Positions 9,941-24,295 of a DNA stretch of 32,000 nt are shown piece after piece. Within the stretch, counting starts at the first letter, position 1. Each line of letters begins with the position of its first letter. A program made the position numbers and the translations under genes. The DNA comes from Sedimentisphaera cyanobacteriorum (GTDB taxonomy: Bacteria > Planctomycetota > Phycisphaerae > Sedimentisphaerales > Sedimentisphaeraceae): the NCBI RefSeq assembly GCF_001997385.1, contig NZ_CP019633.1, positions 2,250,001 through 2,282,000 on the forward strand, in the 5' to 3' direction. Below the pieces are notes generated by a model. The model saw only the letters and a list, made by a program, of their open reading frames with translations, was not told the origin of the DNA and did no database searches.

Positions 9941-11212
9941 GCGCAACGCTTTGCTAATTTAATCAGCCCGCCTGAGGCGGGCTGGAGTTTATCGCTTTAG
10001 GCAAACCTGGGAATTTCATAGGCAAGGCGGTTTTTAGGCCGCCTTTTCCCAAGTTTGACAGTTGCAGCGCTCGGGTTGCTCTCCAGCATAGCCCTATCCC
10101 CTGCAGCAGCGATTTAATTATAACAGCAGAGCAAGCATAGAAAAGTAAAAAAAAGAGTGCCCATTACGGGTGTTTCCGATAGAATGTTTTTTACGAAAAA
10201 TACTCTATTTAAGGAACCGCAATGGGCTACAAACATCTTAACATCAATGAAAGAGAATGCATACTAAAAATGCAGGCAAAAGGAAAAAAATTATCTCAGA
10301 TTGCCGAATATCTCGGCAGAAACAAGGGCACGATAAGTCGAGAATTGAGTCGCAATGTCTCTTCAACTGGGGATTACAAACCGCACCTTGCCCTTGGATA
10401 TTACAACAAACGCAGAGTCGCATCCAAACGCCCTTATCGCTTGGAGCAGAACGGCCGATTGTGCCGGCTTGTAATCAATAAACTTGAACAATATCACTCG
10501 CCCGAGCAGATATCCGCTCGCCTTAAAATTGATTATCCCTACGAGCAGGAAATGCGCGTAAGTCATTTAACCATATATAGTTGGATAAAGAGAGATAAAG
10601 CTGCCGGCGGCGATTATTATAAGTATTTGAGGCAAGGACATCGTAAAAGGAGAAAGAAACACGGCAGCAGCGACAAACGTGGCCGGATACCGGAGAGAGC
10701 TCCGATCAGTGAACGTCCGGCTGTTGTTGATAAACGCAGCCGCATTGGCGACTGGGAAGGTGATACCGTAAGCGGCAAGGGGCACAGTTCGTTTGTTGCC
10801 ACCCATGTAGAGCGGAAAACCCGCTACCTGCTGGTCGGTAAAATGGATGACAAGAGTGCAGCCAGTATGAACGTTACTACCAAGAGAATATTCAGGAAAA
10901 TTCCTAAGTTCAAACGAAAGACACTAACGGTTGATAACGGCAAGGAATTTGGCGGATTTAAGGAGATGGAAAGAATGGTCGGTCTATGCTGCTACTTTGC
11001 TGATCCGTACAGCTCATATCAGCGTGGTACGAACGAAAATACCAACGGACTGCTGCGTCAGTTTTTTCCAAAAGGTACTGATTTTAAGAAAGTAAGCAAA
11101 GCAGAAATTGACAAAGCCGTATCCTTAATCAATAATAGGCCAAGGAAATGCTTAAACTATCGGACACCAAATGAGATGCTCTGGAGCGGATAAAAATGTT
11201 GCGCTTCAGATT
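9941..11212 (+). mobile_element. IS30-family insertion sequence (about 1.27 kb)
   Basis: An intact IS30-type transposase ORF is flanked by inverted copies of an 11-mer: tgaagcgcaac at 9945-9955 and gttgcgcttca at 11198-11208. This extends to about 15 bp with one mismatch (aat[t/c]tgaagcgcaac). The transposase stop (11193) lies just inside the right repeat, as is usual for IS30. The left arm carries two strong hairpins (9964-9984 and 10024-10047). Exact termini and target duplication are unresolved. Confidence 0.6.
10222..11193 (+). CDS. IS30 family transposase
   Basis: 323-aa ORF. It has an N-terminal HTH (LSQIAEYLGRNKGTISRELSRN) and a DDE triad context (DWEGDTV, TVDNGKEF, YQRGTNENTNGLLRQFFPKGTDF). 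An AAGGAA Shine-Dalgarno precedes ATG 10222. Confidence 0.9.
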   Translation: MGYKHLNINERECILKMQAKGKKLSQIAEYLGRNKGTISRELSRNVSSTGDYKPHLALGYYNKRRVASKRPYRLEQNGRLCRLVINKLEQYHSPEQISARLKIDYPYEQEMRVSHLTIYSWIKRDKAAGGDYYKYLRQGHRKRRKKHGSSDKRGRIPERAPISERPAVVDKRSRIGDWEGDTVSGKGHSSFVATHVERKTRYLLVGKMDDKSAASMNVTTKRIFRKIPKFKRKTLTVDNGKEFGGFKEMERMVGLCCYFADPYSSYQRGTNENTNGLLRQFFPKGTDFKKVSKAEIDKAVSLINNRPRKCLNYRTPNEMLWSG

Positions 11213-11858
11213 TTATTCTAAGAAATTTTGAGTTCTCAACAATTTCTTTTTTTATTTGTTCGTTTATGTTTTTAGCTGTTCGATATTCTTTAGAGGTGCC
11301 TCCACGGGTTGAGGGGTTTATTTTTTGCTTAAGACTTTGGTCAACTTGATCTTCTAAACGTTTTACAAACTGTGAATTACCTGCATCTCTAACAGCAGGA
11401 ATCAACACAACATCAACCTTCTTTTTAAGTTCTTCTAATAAATCATAAGCATGCTCGTTTGCTTTTTCGTTTTGTTTAGGTTCTCCATAGTTTAGCCTTA
11501 GTTTATTAGCTGATTTTAAATAAGATAATCTGATTTTAGCTTTTCCGTCCTTATTGCAGCCGTATTTCTTAAACTTTCTTTTGTCGTAGACCTTAATTAT
11601 CAATGAAAATCTTCTCGCTTTATGATGACTCTCATTCGCAGGCTTCCAAAAAGCTTTTTCTTCAACATTGAGTTGTCTTTTACTTAACAATAACTCTTTG
11701 TCAGTATTGTTAAAAAGGTGTTCTAGCATTTTAAGAACAGATGATTTGCCCTCGTTATTTTCACCAACCAATAAAGTAAATTTATGAAAATATAAAGTAG
11801 TATTGGTATAGTTTCTTAAGTTTTGAACCTTGCAGCCTAAAATTTCTATATCATTCAT
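11157..11858 (-). pseudogene. Truncated OLD-family / AAA_15-like ATPase (N-terminal about 215 aa only), C-terminally fused to IS30-derived sequence
   Basis: The N-terminal Walker A context (FTLLVGENNEGKSSVLKMLEHLF) and DVVLIPAVRDAGN resemble OLD/DUF2813-type ATPases. No Walker B or Toprim part is present. The reading frame crosses the IS right end near 11212, so the last ~18 codons (..SEAQHFYPLQSISFGVR) are IS sequence. Native DNA at 11213-11900 is conspicuously AT-rich; one 60-nt line counted 14 G+C. Confidence 0.6.
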
Positions 11859-14462: not shown

Positions 14463-14873
14463 TCAGCTGTCTAAATCTATCGGCTCGTAATCAGGGTGCT
14501 TGGCTCTTTCTACCTCTTCGTGGTATGCCTTTAATATCGCATCCTGTATTTTGTCTCTGCATTCAGAGTTTATAGGGTGCGCGATATCGGCATGGAGCTT
14601 CGACCTTCCGGCAGAATCTTTCTTTGTTCTGTCTTCTTGAAGCTTCTTTCCGCAGCCGCTGCAGAATCTTGCACGCAGGCTGTTTTTAGCGCCGCAGTCA
14701 GGACAATGATCGCTCATCTTTCTTGAAGGCATTGCAACAAACAATCCGCTGCTGCCTTCGATGATCTTTATGTCCCTAACGACAAACTCCCCTTCCATTG
14801 TAATAGAACAAAAGGCCTTCAGCCTCTCATCCTTGTTTTCAACCAACTTTACGCGAACTTCGCTGATTTCCAT
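14463..14873 (-). CDS. spoVG: SpoVG-family protein with a ~40-aa zinc-ribbon-like insertion
   Basis: It starts MEISEVRVKLVENKDERLKAFCSITMEGEFVVRDIKIIEGSSGLFVAMPS and resumes at ADIAHPINSECRDKIQDAILKAYH. Both match the canonical SpoVG core. The insertion between them contains CPDC-x10-CSGC. A GAGGTGG Shine-Dalgarno is upstream. Confidence 0.85.
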   Translation of the reverse strand: MEISEVRVKLVENKDERLKAFCSITMEGEFVVRDIKIIEGSSGLFVAMPSRKMSDHCPDCGAKNSLRARFCSGCGKKLQEDRTKKDSAGRSKLHADIAHPINSECRDKIQDAILKAYHEEVERAKHPDYEPIDLDS

Positions 14874-15842: not shown

Positions 15843-16667
15843 CTATTCTATTTCCAGCTTCATGCCTGCAAAGCCCTGCTGAACTTCGCAGTTCAGGTTG
15901 TTTTTCAGGTATTCAGCGGCATAATCGCCTGTGCAGTGGCAGGGGACAAGGCATTTGATGTCCATCTGGCTTAAGTCTTCAACTGTCCCCCTGAGCCTCT
16001 CTTGGCCTGCATGTACGAGGTGCATTCCTCCAACAACAGTGTCTATCTTAGTTTTTTCGGATATGTCCTGTATTCTGCGGATAGTATTAACTATTCCCGA
16101 ATGGCAGCAGCCAAGAACAATCACAAGGCCGCGGGGAGTTTCCGCCCAAAGAGAAATATCATCTTCCAGCTCGTCGATATATCTGCCTTCACGATCTAAG
16201 AAGAAATTTCCGCCTGTGTCTTCGAAGGCGGTTATTCTGGGTACAGTTCCTGTGAGGTTTATTCCGCCCGGGATTGTCAGGGGCTGTTCATACCAGATTT
16301 TTCTCTCTGTGGGCAGATTCTCTATCGCCTTCTTAATTTCCTCCTGCACAGCCACCGAGTGTGCACCGAGGGTTTTGAGGCTGTATCTGGCCTTGAGCAG
16401 GCCTTCATGGCAGTAGAGCTTTGCTTTTTCTGCTCTTTTGAGCACATAACCGAGCCCGCCTGTATGGTCATAATGGCCGTGGCTGAGAACTATGTAATCA
16501 ATGGAGGATAAATCAACCCCAAGATTATCTGCATTCTCTGCCAGAAGCTCAGTCTGCCCTGCATCAAAGAGCACCTTCGAGCCTCCGGCCTCTAAAAACA
16601 TAGACAGGCCGTGTTCGGAGCCTAATCCTTCTGCTGAATTATTGTCCACAAGTATCGTAATTTTCAT
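15843..16667 (-). CDS. MBL-fold metallo-hydrolase (MJ0301-like subgroup)
   Basis: 274 aa, with ILVDNN..HGLS..VLFDAGQ and the metallo-beta-lactamase HxHxDH motif variant (VLSHGHYDHTGGL). A possible sigma-70-like promoter lies on the minus strand: TTGGTT (16730-16725), 16 nt, TATAAT (16708-16703). Confidence 0.75.
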   Translation of the reverse strand: MKITILVDNNSAEGLGSEHGLSMFLEAGGSKVLFDAGQTELLAENADNLGVDLSSIDYIVLSHGHYDHTGGLGYVLKRAEKAKLYCHEGLLKARYSLKTLGAHSVAVQEEIKKAIENLPTERKIWYEQPLTIPGGINLTGTVPRITAFEDTGGNFFLDREGRYIDELEDDISLWAETPRGLVIVLGCCHSGIVNTIRRIQDISEKTKIDTVVGGMHLVHAGQERLRGTVEDLSQMDIKCLVPCHCTGDYAAEYLKNNLNCEVQQGFAGMKLEIE

Positions 16668-16735
16668 AAAAGTTCCTCTTTCAGCTTTCTTGGTTTGAAC
16701 AGATTATAACAAAACCGCCAATCAAACCAATCCTT

Positions 16736-16773
16736 TAAAAACAAAGCCGCCGGCAAGCTATGCAAGCCGGCAG
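16736..16773 (-). terminator. Probable intrinsic terminator ending the NifX-like/MinD-like operon
   Basis: On the minus strand, GCCGGC-ttgcatagctt-GCCGGC is followed by GGCTTTGTTTTT. It lies about 60 nt after the stop of the last operon gene (16834). Confidence 0.45.
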
Positions 16774-16833
16774 CTCTGCGCAATTAGGGGAAACATTTGG
16801 ATGATAAACCGAATCAGTTATTAAACCATAAGT

Positions 16834-17172
16834 TTAATGATCGCATAAATTTGAGCCTGTTGTAAGTGTGTTCTCAAGGTATGCCTTTACAACGTTCTCA
16901 GGCGTATCAGATTCGGCACCTACTATCACCTCAATATTGTTATCATTAAAAAGTTTCTGCGCTCTCTGCCCCATGCCCCCGGCAATTATCAAATCAGCTC
17001 CAAGGTCGTGAAGCCATTTCGGCAGAACTCCCGGTTCGTGGGGCGGCGGCTGGGTGTATTCAGTTTCTTTTATCTCTCTTGAATTTTCATCCGCCTCCAC
17101 AAGAGCAAAGCTCTGGCAATGTCCAAAGTGAAGACTCAGTTTTCCGTTTACAACGGGCAGTGCTATTTTCAT
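16834..17172 (-). CDS. NifB/NifX-family (dinitrogenase FeMo-cofactor-binding fold) small protein, paralog 3
   Basis: 112 aa: MKIALPVVNGKLSLHFGHCQSFALVE...LGADLIIAGGMGQRAQKLFNDNNIEVIVG. This is the typical NifX/NafY-like single-domain pattern. An AAGGA Shine-Dalgarno is upstream. Confidence 0.8.
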   Translation of the reverse strand: MKIALPVVNGKLSLHFGHCQSFALVEADENSREIKETEYTQPPPHEPGVLPKWLHDLGADLIIAGGMGQRAQKLFNDNNIEVIVGAESDTPENVVKAYLENTLTTGSNLCDH

Positions 17173-17191
17173 TTATTCGATCCTTAAAATT

Positions 17192-17572
17192 TCAGGTTAT
17201 CTCTGTTACAGCTTTTTGGTAATTAAGTATTGCTTCTTTCAGTGCGGCGATTGCATTTTCTGTGCATCCAGCGGCTGTTTTTAAGTCTGCATAATCTTTC
17301 AGCTCGTTTTGACTGAATGAGTATGCCCTGCTGAGCTTCATTCCCTCTGCGATCTCAGCAAGAGCCGAACACGAAAGCATACATTCTTTACTGTTGCTAG
17401 TTATGAAGGCTGCCTGGACGATTTGTTCATTTTGAACATTTATCCAGAACTCTGCAAATCCCCCATCGCTTGAATAGACTCTTGCATTTCCCGAGGCGTT
17501 TTTCAGCGGGCCGAAATTATGCGGGACAGTCTTGGATTTTATTTTAGTATCTGTGAACACAATTTCCCCCAA
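17192..17572 (-). CDS. Divergent IscU/NifU-N-like scaffold-fold protein
   Basis: 126 aa. HNFGPLKNASGNARVYSSDGGFAEFWINVQNEQIVQAAFITSNSKECMLSCSALAEIAEGMKL...AAGCTENAIAALKEAI follows the IscU/SufU layout, but the first Cys motif (CGD) reads DGG. There is no ATG start: 17572 is a TTG, and GTG 17560 has a GGGGGA Shine-Dalgarno just upstream. It overlaps the preceding gene. Confidence 0.5.
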   Translation of the reverse strand: MGEIVFTDTKIKSKTVPHNFGPLKNASGNARVYSSDGGFAEFWINVQNEQIVQAAFITSNSKECMLSCSALAEIAEGMKLSRAYSFSQNELKDYADLKTAAGCTENAIAALKEAILNYQKAVTEIT

Positions 17573-18414
17573 ATTTCTTTAATGTTAGTTTTCAGCTCTT
17601 CGCTTCCGCTCTCTATAACGCTTTTTCCCTGAACCTGAGCAGCTGTAATCTCTTTTGTGTACGGCACTTTCCCAACGAAATGACATCCGCTTTCTTCCGC
17701 TATTTTCTCAATCTGCTTTGTGTTTTCAGGGTTTAGGTCCCATTTATTCACGCATATAAACGTTGGCACATCAAAGTGTTTGGTTAGGCTTCTAACCCGC
17801 TCGAGGTCGTGTATGCCGGACATCGTAGGCTCTGTTACCACAAGAACTGCGTCTGTGCCGGTGATCGAGGCTATCACGGGGCAGCCTGTCCCTGGAGGCC
17901 CGTCAACCACGATAAGCTCGGAATTCTGCTCCTGGGCGAGCTTTCTGGCCTCTTCCCGAACCACGCTCACCAGTTTGCCCGAGTTTTCAGCAGCTATACC
18001 CAGCTTTGCATGCACCATCGGGCCGAATCTTGTATCTGAGATGAACCACTGTCCGCAGCTGCTCTCGGGGAAATCAACAGCATCGGCAGGGCATATCTCA
18101 ACGCACACCCCGCATCCCTCGCACATCGAACTGTCCACGCGGTACTGCCCAACATCGACTCTGTTTATTGCATCGAAGCGGCATTTCTGCCAGCAAGCAC
18201 CGCATCCGAGGCACTTATCCTCATCGATTATCGCCTCATTGCCCGAGATAAAATCTGTTGTCTGTTTTACATTCGGCTCAAGGATCAGGTGCAGATCGGC
18301 AGCATCAACATCGCAGTCTGCAAGTACGGATTTCTCCGCAAGGGCTGCAAACGAGCTTGTAAGGCTTGTTTTGCCGGTTCCGCCTTTTCCGCTTATCACT
18401 ACCAGCTCTTTCAT
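17539..18414 (-). CDS. MinD/ParA-type P-loop ATPase with two 4Fe-4S ferredoxin motifs, paralog 2
   Basis: 291 aa. Deviant Walker A is SGKGGTGKTS. Cys motifs are CLGCGACWQKC and CEGCGVCVEIC, followed by the second half of the ATPase (IVVDGPPGTGCPV). Its ATG overlaps the upstream stop as ATGA at 18411-18414. Confidence 0.85.
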   Translation of the reverse strand: MKELVVISGKGGTGKTSLTSSFAALAEKSVLADCDVDAADLHLILEPNVKQTTDFISGNEAIIDEDKCLGCGACWQKCRFDAINRVDVGQYRVDSSMCEGCGVCVEICPADAVDFPESSCGQWFISDTRFGPMVHAKLGIAAENSGKLVSVVREEARKLAQEQNSELIVVDGPPGTGCPVIASITGTDAVLVVTEPTMSGIHDLERVRSLTKHFDVPTFICVNKWDLNPENTKQIEKIAEESGCHFVGKVPYTKEITAAQVQGKSVIESGSEELKTNIKEIWGKLCSQILK

Positions 18415-19259
18415 CTGCTCACCTCCGCTGCTGTCTGTTCTATCTCGCTGATAAGCCCTTTGAGCCTGTCTTCAAGCCCCGGAACAGAATCGGCCATATC
18501 CGCTCCCTTTGAATACGCCTCTGCAAGCTCTCTTGACTCGGGGATCTCGAGCAGGAGATTTATCCCTTCGTTTGTGCAGTAATCCACAACGCGGCCGTCT
18601 CCGCTGTCTGAGCGGTTTATCACTACGCCGAACGGGATTCCCAGCTCCCGCACAGTTTCCACTGCGAGGATAAGGTCGTTGAGCCCGAAGGGGGTTGGCT
18701 CGGTTACGAGGATTACAAAATCCGCCCCCTGAACAGCTGTAATCATAGGGCAGGAGTTCCCGGGCGGGCAGTCTATAATATTCAGGGCATCTTCTCTGGA
18801 GTATTTCTTCACTTCCCTTATAACAGGCGGCGCCATCGCGTTTCCGATATCCAGAAGCCCTTCTGCTGTGCTGATTTTGCCTGCCTCGCCGACGGCTATC
18901 GAGCCGGCCTTCCTGCCAACTTCCGTTATCGCCTTGGCCGGACAAACCATCTCGCAGCCTCCGCACCCGTGGCAGAGCTCGGGGAAAACGATCGGTTTTC
19001 CGCCCGCTATTGCTATTGCATTGAAGTTGCAGAATTCTGCGCACTTCCCGCACCCGTCGCAGCGGTCTTCATCCACCTGCGGAACGGGAGTTTTAACGGT
19101 TGCGTAATTTACGATCTCGGGCTTTAGGAATATATTGCCGTTCGGCTCCTCGACATCGCAGTCTAAATAAACCGACGGGCCTTCATAAGCCCTTGCCAAA
19201 GATACCGACAGCGTTGTCTTGCCGGTTCCGCCTTTTCCTGATGCTACAGCTAAACGCAT
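18411..19259 (-). CDS. MinD/ParA-type P-loop ATPase with two 4Fe-4S ferredoxin motifs, paralog 1
   Basis: 282 aa. Walker A is SGKGGTGKTT. Cys motifs are CDGCGKCAEFC and CHGCGGCEMVC, then IIDCPPGNSCPM. It overlaps the DUF89 gene by 10 nt. Confidence 0.85.
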   Translation of the reverse strand: MRLAVASGKGGTGKTTLSVSLARAYEGPSVYLDCDVEEPNGNIFLKPEIVNYATVKTPVPQVDEDRCDGCGKCAEFCNFNAIAIAGGKPIVFPELCHGCGGCEMVCPAKAITEVGRKAGSIAVGEAGKISTAEGLLDIGNAMAPPVIREVKKYSREDALNIIDCPPGNSCPMITAVQGADFVILVTEPTPFGLNDLILAVETVRELGIPFGVVINRSDSGDGRVVDYCTNEGINLLLEIPESRELAEAYSKGADMADSVPGLEDRLKGLISEIEQTAAEVSR

Positions 19260-20140
19260 TGCTCCTGGCTGCCTTTCTTAATTAACTCTCTGGATGTAAC
19301 TATCCAATTGCCGTATTCAAGTCCATACTTATCAGCAATCACGCTGCACTTAACCTGAAAGAGAAAATACACGTTCCTTTCGCATTCGTTCAGGGTCTCG
19401 AAGTTTCCCTGTCCTTTGGAAATCACCACATCAGCCCTGCTGTATATATTGAGAAACTCCTCACTGCATGCTGAGAGCACCGTGCCCGGGATGTCTGCCC
19501 CGTTTGGGACTATCCTTGCAACCTTTTCAATGCCTGCCTCGCGGGCTTCCAGCTCGGTGGCATCATTGATTATGGGCGAGCCTTTCACGGCATAGCTCAC
19601 CTCTGCACTTCCGGGAAACTGCTCTATCAGGAGCTTATCGAAAACAGTCTCTCCTGCATTATCTCCCAGAATCAGCACTTCGCCTGCCTGCTCGATATCT
19701 GCATACAGAATGTCAACCGCTTCAGAATCCAGAGGCTGATACTGAACCTTGTCAAAAGAGGCCTCGATTACGCTCTCATCCCAGTCTGAACGTGCACCGA
19801 AATCAAGGATATTGCCTGCAATCGCAAAGCGTATCGCTGTTTCGAAAGGCCTTTCGCTGCCTGCAATGAGCCCTTCTGCCTTCCCTGCCACCTCTTTTGC
19901 GTGGAGGGTGGATTTTTCCTTGAGCTTTTTGTACGGGTCCGGGCTGGCGGTTTCCTCACGCACTATTCTGTGGACAATCTGAGCCATCTCGGGGGGAGTG
20001 AGCTCGAGGCTGAAATCCGATGCTGCCAGCAGAACGCGTTTTAGAATATGCTCGATAGTTTTCTCATCGCAGCCTATCATTCTGCCGGCATCGAGTGCCT
20101 GACGCACAAAACAGGGTATGCAGTCCAGTGAAGTTTTCAT
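19250..20140 (-). CDS. DUF89 / ARMT1-like metal-dependent (damage-control) phosphatase family protein
   Basis: 296 aa. The N-terminal SLDCIPCFVRQAL, the ILGDNAGETVFDKLLIE motif and KGQGNFETL are characteristic of DUF89. Its start overlaps the upstream stop (TGATG at 20138-20142). Confidence 0.75.
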   Translation of the reverse strand: MKTSLDCIPCFVRQALDAGRMIGCDEKTIEHILKRVLLAASDFSLELTPPEMAQIVHRIVREETASPDPYKKLKEKSTLHAKEVAGKAEGLIAGSERPFETAIRFAIAGNILDFGARSDWDESVIEASFDKVQYQPLDSEAVDILYADIEQAGEVLILGDNAGETVFDKLLIEQFPGSAEVSYAVKGSPIINDATELEAREAGIEKVARIVPNGADIPGTVLSACSEEFLNIYSRADVVISKGQGNFETLNECERNVYFLFQVKCSVIADKYGLEYGNWIVTSRELIKKGSQEQCV

Positions 20141-20502
20141 CAGATCCAGTGTCCTTCCACATCTGCCCGAGAGGCTTTAGCAAGCTTTCCGGTTTTGAAA
20201 AGGTCTATCGCTTCTTCGACAGTTTGAGCCTGAGTTGTGTAAACCTCAACGCCTGCCTGCGAGAGCACATGAAATGCCTTCGGTCCGCAGTGGCCTGTTA
20301 TAACCGCCTGCACACCCGAATCAGCGACATTCTGCGCCGCTTGAACGCCTGCTCCCTGAGCTGCACTCAAGTTTTGTGTATTGTCTTTATATTCAAGGCT
20401 GTGTGTTTCAGTGTCGTAGATTAGAAATCCTGCGGCTCTGCCGAACCTGCGGTCAACCGCACTGCTGTATGTTTTACCGTTTGCTGTGATTGCTGCTTTC
20501 AT
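20140..20502 (-). CDS. NifB/NifX-family small protein, paralog 2
   Basis: 120 aa: MKAAITANGKTYSSAVDRRFGRAAGFLIYDTET...AVITGHCGPKAFHVLSQAGVEVY. This is the NifX-like pattern. Confidence 0.8.
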   Translation of the reverse strand: MKAAITANGKTYSSAVDRRFGRAAGFLIYDTETHSLEYKDNTQNLSAAQGAGVQAAQNVADSGVQAVITGHCGPKAFHVLSQAGVEVYTTQAQTVEEAIDLFKTGKLAKASRADVEGHWI

Positions 20503-20631
20503 TTCGATTTCCTGTCCAAATGTTCTCTTAATTGCTTTTATAAGAGAATCAGGCCCTCCGGCAGGGGCACCGGAGAACCTAACCTCTGTTATATAGAAAG
20601 GGTAAACCGATTTATCTAAACCGTGGATCGG

Positions 20632-20964
20632 CTATTTGAGCGATTCGAGCCTCTTTTCAATTTGGCTCATCTGCTCTTTCAGCTGGCTTAAATTATCTTC
20701 TAAAACCTGCTTCTCAGTTTCCGAGTCCAACTGAGGCTGGCCGTAGGCAGGGGCGTTGTATGCGCCATAGGGCGGAGCCTGTTGCGCCCCGCGTCCGAAG
20801 CCGAAGCCTCTGCCGAAACCCCTGCCGAGGCCGCGTCCGCCGCCTCTGAATCCAAAACCGAAACCGTTCATAAATCCCGGTACAGGGCTGCCTGTGCAGT
20901 ATCCAGCTGCTCTTCCTGTCATTGGCCCGAGTCCTGCTGGGCCTGTTCTGTCTCCTCTTGGCAT
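20632..20964 (-). CDS. DUF5320 family protein (Gly/Arg/Phe-rich, C-terminal coiled coil)
   Basis: 110 aa. It has the N-terminal MPRGDRTGPAGLGPMTGRAAGYCTG signature, a GFGFGFRGGGRGLGRGFGRGFGFGRG low-complexity tract, and a C-terminal heptad-like LEDNLSQLKEQMSQIEKRLESLK. An AAGGAG Shine-Dalgarno is upstream. Confidence 0.75.
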   Translation of the reverse strand: MPRGDRTGPAGLGPMTGRAAGYCTGSPVPGFMNGFGFGFRGGGRGLGRGFGRGFGFGRGAQQAPPYGAYNAPAYGQPQLDSETEKQVLEDNLSQLKEQMSQIEKRLESLK

Positions 20965-20993
20965 AATAAACTCTCCTTTCGTAAAGTTTTAAT

Positions 20994-21404
20994 TCAAAAG
21001 TCCTGTCTTCTTTGATTAAGCCCTTTTCCAGCTTTGCCTTTGCGTCTTCGCCGGCCGCCTCTTCTGCCGCGGCAGCCGGGCATGGCAAAGCTTGCTGCGG
21101 TGAGGCTGTTACTCAGCCAGCCCGAGAGCACCTGCTCCACATCGCCGGCTATAAATCCCATAACCTCCATCCCGCTGCTGAGGGCAAATTCCTGGACAGG
21201 CCGAGATATTGCTCCGCAAATCAAGCTCTCTACTCCTATTTCCGCAAGGAACGATACCTTTTCAAAGGGGCTGGTTCCCGGCAGAATCACCTCGGTTCTT
21301 GAAAGTTCACCGCCTTCTGGCGGAACGTCAACTATTACCGCTTTGCCGGCGGCATCAAATACCGGAGCAATCCGGCCTGCCCATATTGTAATTGCTAATT
21401 TCAT
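20994..21404 (-). CDS. NifB/NifX-family small protein, paralog 1, with an Arg/Gly-rich C-terminal tail
   Basis: 136 aa: MKLAITIWAGRIAPVFDAAGKAVIVDV...ESLICGAISRPVQEFALSSGMEVMG, then the tail AMPGCRGRRGGRRRRKGKAGKG. It is the first gene of the operon and has no clear Shine-Dalgarno. Confidence 0.75.
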   Translation of the reverse strand: MKLAITIWAGRIAPVFDAAGKAVIVDVPPEGGELSRTEVILPGTSPFEKVSFLAEIGVESLICGAISRPVQEFALSSGMEVMGFIAGDVEQVLSGWLSNSLTAASFAMPGCRGRRGGRRRRKGKAGKGLNQRRQDF

Positions 21405-21419
21405 ACCGCTTTTGTTTAA

Positions 21420-21435
21420 TCAAGAGGCGTGCCAA
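21420..21435 (-). promoter_or_regulatory. Candidate sigma-54 (-24/-12) promoter
   Basis: The minus strand reads TTGGCACGCCTCTTGAT. This matches TGGCACG-N4-TTGCW with the correct GG-N10 spacing, but the -12 element is TTGA rather than TTGC. It is the only GG-N10-G(C/A) candidate in the 182-nt intergenic region. The predicted start site falls only a few nt before ATG 21404. Confidence 0.4.
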
Positions 21436-21543
21436 AAGGGCAAAAAAATGCAATAAATTTTGTAAAGCATTAAATGCCAGAACCTTATAGAAAGCTGTCT
21501 TGTGATGTTTCATTTTCTTATTGAGGCTTGAACGGCGCAATAA

Positions 21544-21582
21544 TGCAACGTTGCTGCACCGGCATAGTTGCAACAATGCAAC
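21544..21582. promoter_or_regulatory. Cluster of TGCAAC/GTTGCA half-sites (candidate activator binding sites)
   Basis: The sequence is tgcaac-gttgct (21544-21555), gttgcaac (21567-21574) and tgcaac (21577-21582). These are palindromic arrangements lying 110-150 bp upstream of the -24/-12 candidate and immediately after the activator gene stop. Confidence 0.4.
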
Positions 21583-21586
21583 TAAT

Positions 21587-22930
21587 TTATTCTATCCCGA
21601 GCCTGCTGAGCTTACGGTAGAGTGTGGTTTTGTGTATGCCGAGCTCTTTAGCAGCGGCGGTTTTGTTTCCGTTGTTTCTTTTGATAGCAGAGATGATGGC
21701 GTTTTTCTCGCTTTGGTCTGTCTGCATGCGAATGGATCTGCCCTCTGCCCTTTCTTCTGTTTTTCCAAATATACCCTCAGGCAGGTGCGAGAGGGAAATT
21801 CTTTTGGTTCCGCATAAAACAAACGCCCTTTCGATAGTGTTCTCGAGCTCTCGTACGTTCCCGGGCCAGCTGTAATTCAGGAATGCCGAATACACCTCCG
21901 GCGTAATTCCGGGCACTTCCCTGCCGTAGAGACAGTTGTACTTCTCCACAAAATGATCAGCGAGCAGAGGAATATCTTCCTTTCTGTCTCTAAGTGGCGG
22001 GAGGCTGAGGGTTATCACGTTGATTCGGTAGTAGAGGTCTTGTCGAAAGCTGCCCCTTTCCACGAGTTTTGAGAGGTCCTGATTTGTGGCTGCTATAACT
22101 CGCGCCCTGGTTTTTTCGGTTTGATTGCTTCCGAGCGGTTCGTAGCAGCGTTCCTGCAGAACGCGCAGGAGCCGAACCTGCATAGCGGGGCTTACCTCCC
22201 CTATCTCATCGAGGAAGATAGTTCCCTGCCCGGCAGCTGCGAAACGTCCGGGTTTGTCGGTATCTGCGCCGGTGAACGCACCTTTCTTATAGCCGAAAAG
22301 CTCGGATTCAAGCAGAGAATCGGGCAGAGCTCCGCAGTTTACAGCGACAAACGGGGATTTGCTGCGCGGCCCCATCTCGTGGATCGCCTTGGCGAGAACC
22401 TCTTTGCCCGAGCCGGTTTCCCCTGCGATCAGAACCGTGCTGGGGCTTCCTGCCACTGCCCTTGCAAGCTCCATTACTGAGCACATCGAGCTGCTGTGGC
22501 TGATGAAGCCGCCAAGGCTGCACTTGCCCTTCAGCTCACTGCGCAGGGTTTCAATCTCGCTTAGATCGCGGAAGGTTTCAGCACCGCCGATTATTTTGCC
22601 GTTCTCATCACGCAAAACAGCCGTTGACACGCTAACGGGGATGCGGTTTCCCTCTGCGTCAACTATATATCCTGTGCGGTTTATCAGTGGTTTGCCGGTT
22701 TCGAGGGTTTCTCGAAGTGCGCACTGCGCCTCGCACATATTCGAGCGGAATACATCCCAGCAGAAACTCCCTACCGCATCCTCTCGGGATATTCCGGTTA
22801 TCTGCTCAGCAGCGCGGTTGAATGAGCATACCAGCCAGTTCAGGTCAACCGTGAAAACCCCGTCGGAGATGCTGTCTAATACGGCATCGCCGCAGGCGGT
22901 GAAGGCTGGTTTGCGTTTTGAGTTGTCCAT
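21587..22930 (-). CDS. Sigma-54-dependent transcriptional activator (PAS sensor, AAA+ domain, Fis-type HTH)
   Basis: 447 aa. It has an N-terminal PAS-like domain, an AAA+ core (GETGSGKEVLA, ESELFGYKKGAFTGA, TIFLDEIGE, RQDLYYRINV) and a C-terminal HTH (NKTAAAKELGIHKTTLYRKLSRLGI). Confidence 0.9.
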   Translation of the reverse strand: MDNSKRKPAFTACGDAVLDSISDGVFTVDLNWLVCSFNRAAEQITGISREDAVGSFCWDVFRSNMCEAQCALRETLETGKPLINRTGYIVDAEGNRIPVSVSTAVLRDENGKIIGGAETFRDLSEIETLRSELKGKCSLGGFISHSSSMCSVMELARAVAGSPSTVLIAGETGSGKEVLAKAIHEMGPRSKSPFVAVNCGALPDSLLESELFGYKKGAFTGADTDKPGRFAAAGQGTIFLDEIGEVSPAMQVRLLRVLQERCYEPLGSNQTEKTRARVIAATNQDLSKLVERGSFRQDLYYRINVITLSLPPLRDRKEDIPLLADHFVEKYNCLYGREVPGITPEVYSAFLNYSWPGNVRELENTIERAFVLCGTKRISLSHLPEGIFGKTEERAEGRSIRMQTDQSEKNAIISAIKRNNGNKTAAAKELGIHKTTLYRKLSRLGIE

Positions 22931-22966: not shown

Positions 22967-23698
22967 TCAGCATTCGGCGCTGATAAGCTCGGGAAGCTCA
23001 TTAAGAGAATTTATCACCCTTGCGTTTTCCGGGATCTTTTTGCCCTCATTGGTATGAGCTTTCTTGAGCACAGGGAGCATCCCGCAACCTATCGACCCGG
23101 CTATATCAGTTTCGACCTTATCGCCCACAAACACAATCTCGCTGAAATCAGCTCCAATTTTATCTGCGGCCGATTCGAATATTCGTTTGTCCGGTTTCCG
23201 GAATTTGTAGTTGCACGAGTAAACCCGTACGGGGAAATGCTTTAAGATATTTAGTTCTCTGAGGTGATGGTCGAGAGCTTCTGCGCCTGCGTATGTATTG
23301 GATACTATCCCAAGGCTCAGCCCCATTTTTTCGAGCTTGGTTATTGTTTCGCGGAAATTTTTTTCTATATGACCGATTTCCATAAGCGGGCTGTACCATA
23401 TACGAAGCAGCTCGAGCCACTGCTGCTGGCTGAGCTGATGGCCGAATTTCCTGCCGGTTTTCTTCAATACATCCATCGCATCGAAATCGTTGCCCGTTAT
23501 ATCAGACCAGATCAGCTTGAGCTTGATGGTAATCAGGATTCGCCTGATATAATTCTTCATCGACGGAAGCCTCTGGCCGAGACTGGATAGATACTGGTAG
23601 CTCTCGCCGCAGGCCTTCTTGATAAGCGCTTTCTGGTCGAACGGGCCGAAGTTTACTATCGTATCTCCAAAATCAAATAAAACCGCTCTGTATTTCAC
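22967..23698 (-). CDS. HAD-superfamily hydrolase (subfamily IA-like)
   Basis: 243 aa. Motif I is VLFDFGDTIV, motif II is IVSNT, and motif III/IV is KPDKRIF...VFVGDKVETDIAG. The start is a GTG at 23698 with an AGGTGA Shine-Dalgarno upstream. Confidence 0.75.
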   Translation of the reverse strand: MKYRAVLFDFGDTIVNFGPFDQKALIKKACGESYQYLSSLGQRLPSMKNYIRRILITIKLKLIWSDITGNDFDAMDVLKKTGRKFGHQLSQQQWLELLRIWYSPLMEIGHIEKNFRETITKLEKMGLSLGIVSNTYAGAEALDHHLRELNILKHFPVRVYSCNYKFRKPDKRIFESAADKIGADFSEIVFVGDKVETDIAGSIGCGMLPVLKKAHTNEGKKIPENARVINSLNELPELISAEC

Positions 23699-23878: not shown

Positions 23879-24295
23879 GTGGGCGACAATATTTTCCGGC
23901 AGGGCTTTGCAGACCCGGGGATGAACTCCTTCGCCCACTACTCATTTGGAGCTGTATGCCAGTGGATCTATGAAACGATAGGCGGAATCAAAACCGGCGG
24001 GAATGCCTTCAGGAAAATAATCATTCAGCCAAAACCAGGAGGAAATCTCGACTGGGCAAAAACTTCATACCGCTCAATCAGAGGAGAGATTAAAACCGAA
24101 TGGAAAATCGAGGACGGAAAGTTCATTCTTGATGTGGTGATCCCCGCAAACACAGCAGCAGATGTGTATCTGCCAACCGAAAACATTGAAAGTATTAGGC
24201 AGAACGGCCATAGAATCGAAAACGCAGAACCCGCTCAGGAAGCGGCGATTGTTCATATCGGCTCGGGCAAATACCGCTTTGAATCGAGAATATAA
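23879..24295 (+). pseudogene. C-terminal remnant of a GH78 alpha-L-rhamnosidase
   Basis: The 138-aa ORF starts at a GTG. GMNSFAHYSFGAVCQWIYETIGGIK...FRKIIIQPKPGGNLDWAKTSYRSIRGEIKTEWKIEDGKFILDVVIPANTAADVYLP matches the last ~130 aa of bacterial rhamnosidases, which are normally 900 aa or more. No matching upstream coding sequence is present. Confidence 0.65.

Follow-up and report, generated by a model that had tools for sequence, protein, structure and literature searches.

The eight co-directional genes between positions 16834 and 21404 of the window (the whole 32-kb stretch of Sedimentisphaera cyanobacteriorum DNA analyzed here), together with the adjoining activator gene, are by sequence the planctomycete version of the ORP ("orange protein") gene cluster of sulfate-reducing bacteria. 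This ORP-type operon, placed under an OrpR orthologue, most likely serves to hold inorganic Fe–S-type clusters and pass them on, in a redox-gated and ATP-dependent way. The original prediction of an undescribed system with no assigned function was not upheld, since the core of the operon matches the ORP complex cluster of Desulfovibrio vulgaris, which has already been described (PMC8359166, PMC3897727, PMC6345978). That cluster encodes a pair of MinD-ferredoxin ATPases together with several Di-Nase proteins, one of which is an orange-protein homologue, and has a PAS sigma-54 activator; the complex has been named and investigated since 2011, and its regulator OrpR has been characterised in detail (PMC8359166, PMC3897727, PMC6345978). 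The identification is based on the OrpR motif and GAFTGA loop of the activator, a match to PDB 2WFB, the two MinD-ferredoxin paralogues, and the match of Di-Nase C to MrpORP. The extra partner genes beyond the ORP core are DUF5320, DUF89 and IscU-like. As predicted, the open reading frames of the eight genes and the activator all lie on the minus strand:

21587..22930, minus strand: OrpR-type sigma-54 enhancer-binding protein, 447 aa (Pfam PAS, Sigma54_activat, AAA_lid_14 and HTH_8)
21565..21584, no strand assigned: palindrome TAGTTGCA-N4-TGCAACTA, a candidate upstream activating sequence or OrpR box (pattern match and conservation)
21419..21434, minus strand: sigma-54-type promoter TGGCAC-N5-TTGAT (perfect at -24, with TTGA in place of TTGC at -12)
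20994..21404, minus strand: Di-Nase A, NifX/NifB-fold, cationic C-terminal tail (…FAMPGCRGRRGGRRRRKGKAGKG…), pI 9.8, 2 Cys (orthologue profile)
20632..20964, minus strand: DUF5320 protein (Pfam, 94 bits)
20503..20631, minus strand: non-coding spacer, 14-bp hairpin followed by UUCUCUU (conservation and folding)
20140..20502, minus strand: Di-Nase B, orange-protein (ORP/Orp8, MTH1175-type) homologue (Pfam Nitro_FeMo-Co, 88 bits)
19250..20140, minus strand: DUF89/ARMT1-like metal-dependent phosphatase with cysteines C7, C10, C225 and C265 (Pfam, 202 bits)
18411..19259, minus strand: MinD/ParA P-loop ATPase with inserted 2x[4Fe–4S] ferredoxin domain, paralogue 1 (CbiA/ParA and two Fer4 motifs)
17539..18414, minus strand: MinD/ParA-ferredoxin ATPase, paralogue 2, ATGA start overlap with paralogue 1 (CbiA/ParA and two Fer4)
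17192..17560, minus strand: degenerate IscU/NifU_N-like protein, 122 aa (GTG 17560) or 126 aa (TTG 17572) (NifU_N, 27 bits)
16834..17172, minus strand: Di-Nase C, free-standing counterpart of the MrpORP (Orp9) C-terminal Di-Nase domain (Nitro_FeMo-Co, 78 bits)
16736..16779, minus strand: intrinsic terminator at the operon end, 14-bp GC-rich stem and UUUUU (-38.8 kcal/mol, z -4.2)
15843..16667, minus strand: MBL-fold hydrolase, TM1679-like (Pfam Lactamase_B)

The Sedimentisphaera operon and the ORP cluster of D. vulgaris Hildenborough (orp3-orp4-orp5 / orpR / orp7-orp8-orp9) share a PAS sigma-54 activator adjoining its targets, a paralogous pair of MinD-type ATPases with two [4Fe–4S] motifs apiece, several single-domain Di-Nase proteins with an orange-protein homologue among them, and a sigma-54 promoter with a palindromic activator site, and both are found only in anaerobes. 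We note the following differences. First, the host is a planctomycete, whereas D. vulgaris is a deltaproteobacterium. Second, the genes appear to form a single operon rather than two divergent ones. Third, the Sedimentisphaera cluster lacks the Mrp/NBP35 P-loop ATPase domain of D. vulgaris and keeps the Di-Nase half alone, as a separate gene. Fourth, a four-cysteine DUF89 phosphatase and a degenerate, fast-evolving IscU-like gene are additional, and apparently DUF5320 as well, although D. vulgaris orp7 (DVU2107) may be either a DUF5320 or a tailed Di-Nase.

The activator has the same PAS, AAA+ and HTH architecture as OrpR (DVU2106). Its PAS motif, CWDVFRSNMCEAQC, starts at residue 57 (C57-x-D59-x6-C66-x3-C70) and, on sequence comparison, has the spacing published for OrpR, C52/(D/E)54/C61/C65 (PMC8359166). 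This C-x-[D/E]-x6-C-x3-C motif, required in OrpR for [4Fe–4S]-based redox sensing, also occurs in 16 activators adjoining DUF5320/Di-Nase clusters of other phyla. The activator loop reads GAFTGA, whereas that of D. vulgaris OrpR reads GAFTDA, and the protein is 94% identical to its S. salicampi counterpart. The activator is an OrpR orthologue. The candidate OrpR box, ~130 nt upstream of the sigma-54-type promoter, is the sole match to GT[AT]GC-N5-8-GC[AT]AC in the window; 23 matches occur in the 1.24 Mb of all loci, at least 14 of them in or beside intergenic regions between orpR and the first Di-Nase gene. Although the rest of the spacer has diverged, the box is kept in S. salicampi. A palindrome with a GCR-T-rich-TGC core is common to this box and the OrpR site, whereas the letters differ (AGTTGCA-N4-TGCAACT in Sedimentisphaera, GGGCGYRTTTTGCGCCC in Desulfovibrio). 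The promoter is likewise conserved in S. salicampi as TTTGGCAC-N5-TTG, and TGGCA[CT]-N5-xTGC[TA] stands at the equivalent position in 12-13 of 16 OrpR-type loci. Thus, the sigma-54/PAS control proposed earlier is supported by the activator with its PAS, Sigma54_activat and HTH_8 domains, the OrpR motif, the promoter and the palindromic box. However, the consensus C is missing from the -12 element in both Sedimentisphaera species and the promoter lies only ~17 nt ahead of the ATG at 21404, leaving a leader of at most ~6 nt, both of which count against the explanation as an OrpR/sigma-54 operon.

HMM searches with Pfam and NCBIfam profiles were run on each protein, and all the predicted family assignments survived, that of Di-Nase A only via an orthologue profile. 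Alone, Di-Nase A scores 23 bits, under the Pfam cut-off of 26.3; the profile of nine orthologues matches Di-Nase-fold PDB entries (E 1e-9 to 2e-5), and PF02579 is matched by 9/9 of its members. Its "MPGC + Arg-rich" tail is conserved in >10 loci and agrees with the IssX-type criteria of the IssA paper, but for a Gly content of 17.5% (last 40 residues) vs. 20%. NifX, NafY and the NifB C-terminal domain, which are FeMo-cofactor carriers, belong to the same fold family (PF02579) as the Di-Nase proteins of the operon, and all three small proteins fall in the Nitro_FeMo-Co family, so that they could be accessory NifX/NafY-like carriers for a nif/anf/vnf system elsewhere in the genome. We consider this very improbable: as noted originally, the 32-kb window holds no nif genes, a NifH signature was found in none of 87 DUF5320 loci totalling 1.24 Mb, and, unlike these carriers, the operon and its related loci have no nitrogenase context. 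Moreover, the nearest relatives, including the nearest solved ones, are the non-nif ORP, MTH1175 and TM1290 groups rather than NifX/NafY, and the activator, although NifA is among the many models it matches (under the NifA cut-off), has the OrpR cysteine motif and not the NifA GAF domain.

The top solved-structure match of Di-Nase B is 2WFB, D. gigas ORP (E 4.5e-22). The orange protein is known for a Mo–Cu–S cluster rather than an Fe–S one, which counts against the Fe–S explanation. Its [S2MoS2CuS2MoS2] cluster suggests that the operon might instead handle Mo/W–Cu thiometallates, either providing enzymes with Mo/W or, in sulfidic surroundings, sequestering or detoxifying copper and thiomolybdate. 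Sedimentisphaera is a genus of sulfidic, hypersaline mats, homologues of ORP hold the Mo–Cu–S cluster non-covalently, and for the cationic tails and the Arg-rich segment of DUF5320 any anionic metal-sulfide would be a ligand. However, neither the window nor the annotated sibling loci contain genes for molybdate/tungstate transport, molybdopterin or copper, and the accessory genes, where present, are of the Fe–S assembly types NifU_N and Mrp; we therefore regard a thiometallate function as unlikely.

Di-Nase C matches positions 265-365 of the NCBIfam MrpORP model (134 bits) and has >100 free-standing homologues at 60-68% identity. It carries LSLHFGHCQ, TQPPPHEPGVLP and a terminal CDH; the Di-Nase motifs described for MrpORP are CxHFGHCE, TPPPHxPGxxP and CDH (PMC6345978). 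HFGHC, PPPHxPG and the C-terminal CDH are thus common to both, whereas Di-Nase C has Leu in place of the first Cys of CxHFGHCE. The MrpORP Di-Nase domain binds a [3Fe–4S]-type cluster, and Fe–S clusters pass from MrpORP to Orp3/Orp4 (PMC6345978), which fits the general idea, proposed originally, of ATP-linked handling of an Fe–S-type cofactor. Fe–S handling is further supported by canonical NifU_N proteins in other DUF5320 loci, by Mrp-type genes in sibling clusters, and by Fur-family regulators that replace the OrpR-type activator in some of these. However, the MrpORP ATPase domain, bearer of the demonstrated Fe–S transfer, is missing here, and the lack of an Mrp/NBP35 ATPase, the sole ORP component with such a demonstration, counts against this explanation.

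The DUF5320 protein, 100% identical to L21SP3_01830 of S. cyanobacteriorum, consists of an invariant N-terminus (alignment columns MPRGDRTGPxGxGPMTGRAAGYC, with the single Cys23), a disordered Gly/Arg/Phe-rich middle and a C-terminal helix; its AlphaFold2 model has pLDDT <50 at residues 1-70 and one helix at 81-109. A literature search found no functional paper on DUF5320. In a neighbourhood survey of 87 DUF5320 loci from >15 phyla, a Di-Nase gene adjoins in 74/87 and a MinD-like ATPase gene in 60/87, and Di-Nase–DUF5320 fusion proteins, with both domains above Pfam cut-offs, occur in three loci. A partnership of DUF5320 with Di-Nase proteins is suggested by this neighbourhood, the fusions, the cationic tail of Di-Nase A, and the first 70 residues of DUF5320, whose composition is like that of the IssA tail. 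IssA, the thioferrate iron–sulfur storage protein of Pyrococcus furiosus, joins a Di-Nase (IPR003731) domain to a cationic, Gly/aromatic-rich, single-Cys disordered segment; in Sedimentisphaera the similar segments are the Di-Nase A tail and the separate DUF5320 protein, whereas in three other organisms such a segment is fused to an ORP-type Di-Nase. Neither the coiled-coil helix of DUF5320 nor its invariant N-terminus has been described for IssA. The likeness is compositional, with no detectable sequence homology between the IssA tail and either the DUF5320 or the Di-Nase A tail, which counts against the Fe–S holder explanation.

Both ATPases carry the deviant Walker A GKGGTGKT, with the Cys motifs CDGCGKCAEFC and CHGCGGCEMVC in 18411..19259 and CLGCGACWQKC and CEGCGVCVEIC in 17539..18414, and are mutually 31% identical. 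They represent an Orp3/Orp4-type pair; co-purification of Orp3 and Orp4 has been shown in Desulfovibrio. Among adjacent MinD-Fer4 pairs of other loci, the paralogue order is the same in 29/29, and 10 have a 4-nt overlap. The Walker A is of the MinD/ParA class, and a reading in which the pair places a structure such as the septum or a polar complex, with metal clusters merely as redox sensors, gains from the published phenotype of lost ORP expression, a morphology/cell-division defect rather than an Fe–S one, which also counts against the Fe–S explanation. OrpR inactivation in D. vulgaris gave morphological defects from which the authors suggested a cell-division role, the system also being listed under "Cell division"; MrpORP sits at one cell pole, and a MinD-like C-terminal amphipathic helix has been reported for Orp3/Orp4. 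However, the window ATPases score 52-58 bits against MinD-model cut-offs of 200 or more, and no minC, minE, par or fts genes adjoin the annotated clusters. The conserved neighbours are instead metal-cluster proteins, NifU, Mrp, radical-SAM enzymes and Fur regulators, and archaea, with other division machinery, have the same clusters. We thus give cell division or spatial positioning a low probability as the function of the pair.

The DUF89 protein scores 169 bits against the NCBIfam damage-control phosphatase model, under its cut-off of 440, and shows full-length similarity to the subfamily I phosphatases PH1575 and AF1104 (PDB 2G8L, E 1e-36; 2FFJ, E 1e-31). It shares with these the metal-site motifs, an N-terminal CxxC and one further Cys, and retains DNAGE and KGQGN. 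All four of its cysteines are conserved in 16 cluster-linked DUF89 proteins, whereas the fourth, C225, is specific to that group relative to PH1575/AF1104. In the IscU-like protein, alignment with IscU structures shows the loss of Cys1 (CGD to DGG), Cys2 (GC to NS) and the His. Its identity to the S. salicampi counterpart is just 72% (synonymous/non-synonymous codon differences 31/34), and the gene appears to be a decaying, fast-evolving relic without cluster ligands. The MBL hydrolase matches PDB 3H3E (E 5e-37), and its TM1679-like family occurs in 26/87 DUF5320 loci; the gene is absent from the equivalent S. salicampi position. It is a recurrent companion, yet apparently a separate transcription unit in the window. 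An IscU-like protein without scaffold ligands counts against the Fe–S model, as does the absence from the model of a role for DUF89 and MBL.

The overlaps read from the sequence lie where the original prediction placed them. Four of the seven junctions overlap: by 1 nt (TGATG, 20138-20142), 10 nt (ATGCGTTTAG, 19250-19259), 4 nt (ATGA, 18411-18414), and, at the IscU-like start, 22 nt if GTG 17560, which follows GGGGGA, is used or 34 nt if TTG 17572 is, the S. salicampi gene being called in the 122-aa GTG form. The other three are gaps of 29, 129 and 19 nt. The overlaps bear out the operon-like packing, whereas the further claim that all eight products are made in fixed stoichiometry is doubtful in view of the conserved hairpin in the 129-nt spacer after the DUF5320 gene. 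This spacer is 95% identical to that of S. salicampi, vs. about 88-89% in flanking coding DNA, and folds with an MFE of -42.3 kcal/mol (z -3.4); an Rfam search of it gave no match. Strong hairpins are commonly found 3′ of DUF5320 genes in other loci, and this one is a candidate intra-operon attenuator or stabiliser. The terminator-like hairpin predicted after the operon is real, and the S. salicampi sequence is near-identical to it up to the T-run, with homology ending just beyond.

In the sister species S. salicampi, the same nine genes stand in the same order; in all but the IscU-like gene, the proteins are 88-96% identical and synonymous changes far exceed non-synonymous ones. The order OrpR, Di-Nase, DUF5320, Di-Nase, [DUF89], MinD-Fer4 x2, Di-Nase, [MBL] recurs in Omnitrophota, Zixibacteria, Clostridia, Brocadiia, Spirochaetota and Deltaproteobacteria, confirming the expected recurrence in other, unrelated anaerobes, and the arrangement is far beyond chance. 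That the genes are merely adjacent and form no functional unit is accordingly hardly credible: gaps at 3/7 junctions, one with a strong hairpin, would allow it, but the identical sister-species order under purifying selection, its recurrence across phyla, the overlapping junctions, the terminator exactly at the end of synteny and the natural fusions of two of the families all argue otherwise.

For the preferred reading, redox-gated holding and hand-over of Fe–S-type clusters, conserved motifs would carry over the control worked out in Desulfovibrio. OrpR would hold a [4Fe–4S] cluster on three PAS-domain cysteines; in the reduced cell it would sit on the palindrome just 3′ of its own gene and activate sigma-54 RNA polymerase at TGGCAC-N5-TTGA, and oxidation would switch the operon off. 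The fixed paralogue order and coupled start/stop codons suggest that the MinD-ferredoxin paralogues form an ATP-dependent heterodimer with four [4Fe–4S] clusters. The three Di-Nase proteins, of orange-protein, MrpORP-C-terminal and Arg-rich-tail type, may bind labile inorganic metal–sulfur units. DUF5320, with its cationic Gly/Arg/aromatic segment, one invariant Cys and then a coiled-coil helix, may act with Di-Nase as an electrostatic holder of anionic Fe–S material, by analogy to the IssA tail, and the DUF89 phosphatase and neighbouring MBL hydrolase would be recurrent accessories. Thus, during anoxic growth, the operon may provide redox-gated, ATP- and electron-dependent storage or hand-over of Fe–S-type clusters.

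By ORF reading, nine genes, all co-directional, occupy the minus strand from 22930 to 16834, and HMM searches (Pfam, NCBIfam) bore out each family named in the original prediction. The three small proteins of the Nitro_FeMo-Co/NifX fold are referred to as Di-Nase A, B and C in operon order:

21587-22930, minus strand: activator with PAS, sigma-54-interaction and HTH_8 domains (HMM search)
20994-21404, minus strand: Di-Nase A (below the Pfam cut-off alone; orthologue profile)
20632-20964, minus strand: DUF5320 protein (HMM search)
20140-20502, minus strand: Di-Nase B (HMM search)
19250-20140, minus strand: DUF89 protein, ARMT1-like (Pfam, 202 bits)
18411-19259, minus strand: P-loop CbiA/ParA ATPase with two CxxCxxCxxxC motifs (HMM search)
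17539-18414, minus strand: second CbiA/ParA ATPase of the same type (HMM search; 31% identity to the first)
17192-17572, minus strand: NifU_N-like (IscU-like) protein (HMM search)
16834-17172, minus strand: Di-Nase C (HMM search)

As a single sequence, Di-Nase A scored under the Pfam cut-off; its nine-orthologue profile matched structures of the Di-Nase fold (E 1e-9 to 2e-5), and PF02579 was matched by 9/9 members of that profile. The gene overlaps claimed earlier (TGATG, 10 nt, ATGA, and 22 or 34 nt) are exact in the sequence, and at the remaining three junctions the genes are separated by 29, 129 and 19 nt. Folding recovered the terminator-like hairpin that had been placed at the end of the operon, i.e., a 14-bp hairpin followed by UUUUU (16736-16779, -38.8 kcal/mol, z -4.2).

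A match of Di-Nase C to the NCBIfam model 'MrpORP' (134 bits, model positions 265-365) leads to published work on the orange protein (ORP) complex. Knowledge of this 'anaerobe-specific' assembly dates from 2011, and work on it so far has been within Desulfovibrio. In D. vulgaris Hildenborough, Orp3 and Orp4 are MinD-type ATPases with two [4Fe-4S] motifs apiece, and Orp5, Orp7 and Orp8 are small proteins from the orp operons, of which Orp5 shows homology to a [2Fe-2S]-binding protein and Orp8 is an orange-protein (Di-Nase) homologue. Orp9, also called MrpORP, is a Di-Nase domain fused to an Mrp/NBP35 ATPase, and OrpR is a PAS sigma-54 activator whose gene lies between two divergent operons. The window cluster shares with this system a pair of MinD-type ATPase paralogues that, like Orp3/Orp4, bear two [4Fe-4S] ferredoxin motifs apiece, and single-domain Di-Nase proteins, three in number here, one of which is an Orp8 homologue. 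Among solved structures, Di-Nase B (20140-20502) is closest to 2WFB, the orange protein of D. gigas (E 4.5e-22), and Di-Nase C carries the motifs LSLHFGHCQ, TQPPPHEPGVLP and a terminal CDH, the same three motifs as in the MrpORP Di-Nase domain, a binder of a [3Fe-4S]-type cluster (PMC6345978). We consider it highly probable that the locus encodes an ORP-type operon under OrpR/sigma-54 control. Given the matches of Di-Nase B, Di-Nase C and the activator to the ORP system, the original prediction was wrong in stating that there was no known counterpart, since the D. vulgaris cluster is one; its observation of the gene set was confirmed and its interpretation held in part, whereas its claim of an undescribed system was not correct.

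Two differences from the D. vulgaris cluster are noted. First, D. vulgaris has the Mrp/NBP35-Di-Nase fusion, whereas the window cluster has the Di-Nase half only, and it contains no P-loop gene lacking ferredoxin (Fer4) motifs, whereas sibling loci hold 23 Mrp-type genes. Second, two divergent operons surround orpR in D. vulgaris, whereas the window genes are all co-directional downstream of orpR. When Di-Nase C and the Di-Nase A profile served as queries for homologues, the best 120 matches were metagenomic and planctomycete relatives only, with no Desulfovibrio entry among them. Coupled junctions, together with domain fusions found elsewhere, are indirect evidence that the ORP-type products may form one physical complex.

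The sigma-54/PAS control proposed earlier gained support from comparison across loci in the form of an OrpR-type motif, a promoter element and a palindrome. Redox sensing by OrpR involves a [4Fe-4S] cluster that requires C52, C61 and C65, and residue 54 is a conserved acidic one (PMC8359166). The PAS motif of the window activator, CWDVFRSNMCEAQC (residues 57-70), reads C57-W-D59-x6-C66-x3-C70 and thus has the C-x8-C-x3-C spacing, with an acidic residue two after the first cysteine, that characterises the ORP system. The form C-x-[DE]-V-F-R-x3-C-x3-C is common to 16 activators adjoining such clusters in Spirochaetota, Omnitrophota, Clostridia, Brocadiia, Zixibacteria and Deltaproteobacteria. 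Two elements lie between the activator gene and Di-Nase A:

21434-21419, minus strand: sigma-54-type promoter element TGGCACGCCTCTTGAT (sequence match)
21565-21584: candidate activator site TAGTTGCA-N4-TGCAACTA, directly after the orpR stop codon

The sigma-54 promoter form looked for in an ORP cluster is GG-N10-GC, together with a palindromic OrpR site ahead of the structural genes. The putative window promoter, TGGCAC-N5-TTGA, has a perfect -24 element, and at -12 the consensus C is replaced in both Sedimentisphaera species, by A in one and by T in the other. In the sister species S. salicampi, TTTGGCAC-N5-TTG and the short leader are kept within an intergenic region that is 81% identical overall, and TGGCA[CT]-N5-xTGC[TA] stands at the same position in 12-13 of 16 other loci in which an OrpR-like gene lies ahead of a Di-Nase/DUF5320 pair. 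The core of the candidate site resembles the experimentally defined Desulfovibrio box GGGCGYRTTTTGCGCCC (PMC8359166). The pattern GT[AT]GC-N5-8-GC[AT]AC matches the window exactly once and 1.24 Mb of collected loci 23 times, with at least 14 of the 23 matches inside or next to orpR/Di-Nase spacers, frequently in duplicate. Based on the conservation of promoter, site and activator motif among loci, the predicted redox-gated sigma-54 control in S. cyanobacteriorum is well supported by comparison.

The -12 element lies only ~13-17 nt before the first Di-Nase start codon (window 21404-21434, minus strand), and the same spacing occurs across phyla (L028, L048, L051, L055 and L058; L-numbers denote loci collected around DUF5320 genes in other genomes), so that the predicted mRNA leader is at most ~6 nt long, without a Shine-Dalgarno sequence. 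On the other side of the activator, a HAD-family hydrolase gene (22967-23698, minus strand) stops 36 nt short of the orpR start codon and holds the same place in S. salicampi, suggesting that orpR may be co-transcribed with it.

Identification of the ATPases as septum-site MinD was rejected, with scores of 52-58 bits against equivalog cut-offs of 202-213. Among adjacent MinD-ferredoxin pairs from the collected loci, the order of the two paralogues is the same in 29/29, and 10 pairs share a 4-nt overlap. This constant order and the shared overlaps point to what may be an old obligate heterodimer, in line with Desulfovibrio work in which Orp3 and Orp4 co-purify. A role in cell division or positioning, which is the published phenotype, is a less probable alternative; no min genes were found near the ATPases in the window.

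S. cyanobacteriorum is an anaerobe of the Phycisphaerae (Planctomycetota), and the window's DUF5320 protein is its L21SP3_01830 (100% identity). The gene order in S. salicampi is identical, i.e., HAD hydrolase, activator, Di-Nase A, DUF5320, Di-Nase B, DUF89, both ATPases, IscU-like protein and Di-Nase C, and the proteins are 88-96% identical between the two species, with synonymous changes far exceeding non-synonymous ones. Only the IscU-like gene departs from this, with 72% identity and codon differences of which 31 are synonymous and 34 non-synonymous. Downstream of Di-Nase C, the two genomes are nearly identical up to the terminator T-run and unrelated beyond it, and where the window has its MBL hydrolase gene, S. 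salicampi has a Metallophos gene on the opposite strand; this loss of synteny and the replacement argue that the transcription unit ends at 16736. Membership of the MBL gene in the operon was rejected, because the terminator lies between and the gene is absent here in S. salicampi. The stretch from the Di-Nase C stop codon to the terminator stem (16780-16833, minus strand) is non-coding, yet nearly identical between the two species.

The 129-nt spacer between DUF5320 and Di-Nase B (20503-20631, minus strand) is 95% identical to that of S. salicampi, compared with ~88-89% for the flanking coding sequence, and folds into a 14-bp hairpin followed by UUCUCUU (z -3.4). This hairpin may attenuate or stabilise the transcript, so that the first two genes would differ in level from the rest. 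A generic terminator scan missed both conserved hairpins, whereas folding found both, and Rfam gave no match in the window at gathering thresholds or in the operon region 16600-21700 at permissive thresholds. Strong GC-rich hairpins also occur 3' of DUF5320 genes in many phyla (L005, L010, L051, L061, L071, L073 and others); over the 100 nt that follow the gene, folding energy has a median of -27.5 kcal/mol for DUF5320 and of -22 to -23 for Di-Nase or MinD genes (Mann-Whitney p 2e-4, without control for base composition).

The DUF89 protein keeps the metal-site motifs D160-N-A-G-E164 and K242-G-Q-G-N246 in its ARMT1-like domain (202 bits) and lies below the NCBIfam equivalog cut-off, so that no substrate is assignable. 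Across 16 cluster-linked DUF89 proteins (the window's and 15 others), C7, C10 and C265 are conserved in 100% and C225 in 94%, whereas the solved relatives PH1575 and AF1104 have only three of these four cysteines; as judged from this conservation, the four-cysteine set may be a metal or Fe-S site. An IscU/NifU_N scaffold has three cysteines as cluster ligands, along with a conserved Asp and His. In the IscU-like protein, the third Cys alone aligns with IscU, with CGD replaced by DGG, GC by NS and HC by GC, such that Cys1, Cys2 and the scaffold His are gone. NifU_N proteins from sibling clusters are canonical. A functional IscU scaffold was rejected for the window protein because of the lost ligands and fast evolution, and we read it as a relic.

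Elsewhere in the window, the SpoVG domain of a SpoVG homologue (14463-14873, minus strand) is split midway by an inserted double zinc ribbon segment. An IS-type integrase gene (HTH_38 and rve; 10222-11193, plus strand) overlaps the end of a 233-aa AriA/GajA/OLD-like AAA_15 ATPase fragment (11157-11858, minus strand) in a patch of 34% G+C (10222-11858), which is probably a defence gene cut by insertion. A 138-aa ORF (23879-24295, plus strand) matches only the C-terminal domain of bacterial alpha-L-rhamnosidase and appears to be a gene remnant.

A scan of a genome collection with a DUF5320 alignment as seed gave 80 loci in more than 15 phyla, archaea included, and exact-protein look-ups gave seven more, i.e., six metagenomic loci and S. 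salicampi. The 80 scan loci, the six metagenomic ones and the window make up the 87 loci counted, and S. salicampi was compared separately. Within 9 kb of DUF5320, a Di-Nase is a neighbour in 74/87 loci, a MinD-like ATPase in 60, a DUF134 regulator in 31, an MBL hydrolase of the same family as the window's in 26, radical SAM in 21, a sigma-54 activator in 19, DUF89 in 16, a Fur-family regulator in 15 and NifU_N in 12. The expectation that the gene set would recur outside this genome held, in that the window's gene order was found again in distant lineages, and chance juxtaposition of the genes is unlikely; for example, L048 (Omnitrophota) reads OrpR, Di-Nase, DUF5320, Di-Nase, DUF89, MinD-Fer4 (the two-ferredoxin-motif ATPase), radical SAM, MinD-Fer4, Di-Nase, MBL. 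Twenty-five MinD-like genes are without ferredoxin motifs, and 23 of these are of the Mrp/NBP35 type with a CxxC motif. By lineage, the one structural gene set stands with three regulator types, namely OrpR-type sigma-54, Fur-family (15 loci) and DUF134 (31 loci) (L001, L006, L007, L021, L027, L043, L065; L004, L005, L009, L010; and others).

The ORP core is thus part of a far larger modular gene neighbourhood in more than 15 bacterial and archaeal phyla, whose partners DUF5320, the four-cysteine DUF89, the TM1679-like MBL hydrolase, NifU and Mrp are without study in the literature searched; no functional link to these clusters was found in the literature on DUF5320, DUF134, COG1149 and DUF89. 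The absence of nif genes noted earlier was upheld when the rest of the window was searched, and the NifH signature is absent from all 87 related loci, which makes it unlikely that the Di-Nase proteins serve a nitrogenase as NifX/NafY-type carriers; a literature search on nitrogenase in the genus Sedimentisphaera gave nothing decisive.

The DUF5320 protein has an invariant N-terminus, MPRGDRTGPxGxGPMTGRAAGYC, with one cysteine, then a Gly/Arg/Phe-rich segment (residues 29-62, pI 12) and a C-terminal helix; AlphaFold2 is confident for helix 81-109 only. In three loci, an ORP-type Di-Nase is fused through a [GMGR]n linker to the DUF5320 C-terminal coiled coil, with both Pfam domains above their cut-offs:

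L019:2940-3548, Di-Nase-DUF5320 fusion
L077:1483-2121, Di-Nase-DUF5320 fusion
L073:10663-11334, Di-Nase-DUF5320 fusion

These fusions are Rosetta-stone evidence for Di-Nase and DUF5320 as predicted partners. The C-terminus of Di-Nase A consists of FAMPGC and an Arg-rich tail, kept in more than 10 loci. In IssA, the iron-sulfur storage protein of Pyrococcus furiosus, a Di-Nase domain is joined to a tail (cationic, aromatic, rich in glycine and with one cysteine) to which anionic thioferrate binds, and IssA can rebuild [4Fe-4S] ferredoxin. Di-Nase A has a pI of 9.77 and 2 Cys, and Gly makes up 17.5% of its C-terminal 40 residues; it falls within the looser IssX definition of the IssA paper (IPR003731, pI at least 8, <10 Cys, at least 10% Gly in the C-terminal 40 residues) and narrowly outside that of IssA (IPR003731, pI at least 9, <5 Cys, at least 20% Gly in the same stretch). 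Residues 1-70 of DUF5320 are near the IssA tail in reported composition. The likeness of the Di-Nase A tail and DUF5320 to IssA is chemical, not homology, and from it we infer, as a tentative and somewhat doubtful proposal, that DUF5320 and the Arg-tailed Di-Nase bind an anionic metal-sulfide electrostatically. The first Di-Nase after orpR in L041, L045, L048, L070 and L084 has a longer, zinc-ribbon-like C-terminal extension (G-x-x-G-[YF]-C-x-C-P-x-C-G … K-C-x-x-C-G), the start of which resembles the 'AGYC' of the DUF5320 N-terminal motif.

The biochemistry published for MrpORP, the Fe-S nature of nearly all the products and the presence of NifU, Mrp and Fur in sibling clusters argue for a function in the redox-gated, ATP-dependent holding and transfer of Fe-S-type clusters, a reading to which we give about even weight. 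Handling of Mo/W-Cu thiometallates is a less probable alternative, considered because the cluster known for the orange protein itself is of that type; no molybdenum genes were found in the remainder of the window. Within the Fe-S reading, a more specific and unlikely version is that DUF5320 and the cationic-tailed Di-Nase are a bacterial and archaeal counterpart of the IssA store, served by the ATPase pair. A disordered Arg/Gly/aromatic matrix, oligomerised by the DUF5320 coiled coil, would hold an anionic iron-sulfur polymer, the MinD-ferredoxin heterodimer would load and unload that matrix, and the module would be switched, depending on lineage, by redox state (OrpR), a Fur-family regulator or DUF134.

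To readers of the ORP literature, the locus itself is unsurprising; its comparative value is that the unstudied DUF5320 and several accessory enzymes are tied to the ORP core in many phyla. If the IssA-counterpart version is true, the ORP complex, long without an explanation, would be a widespread machine, specific to anaerobes, for Fe-S storage and mobilisation. More generally, the Di-Nase-DUF5320 fusions and IssA-like tails suggest a testable storage-and-delivery model, in which these proteins would hold polymeric or labile Fe-S material and the ATPase pair would move it; its outcome would offer a first functional lead for DUF5320 and bear on the storage and distribution of iron-sulfur clusters in strict anaerobes.
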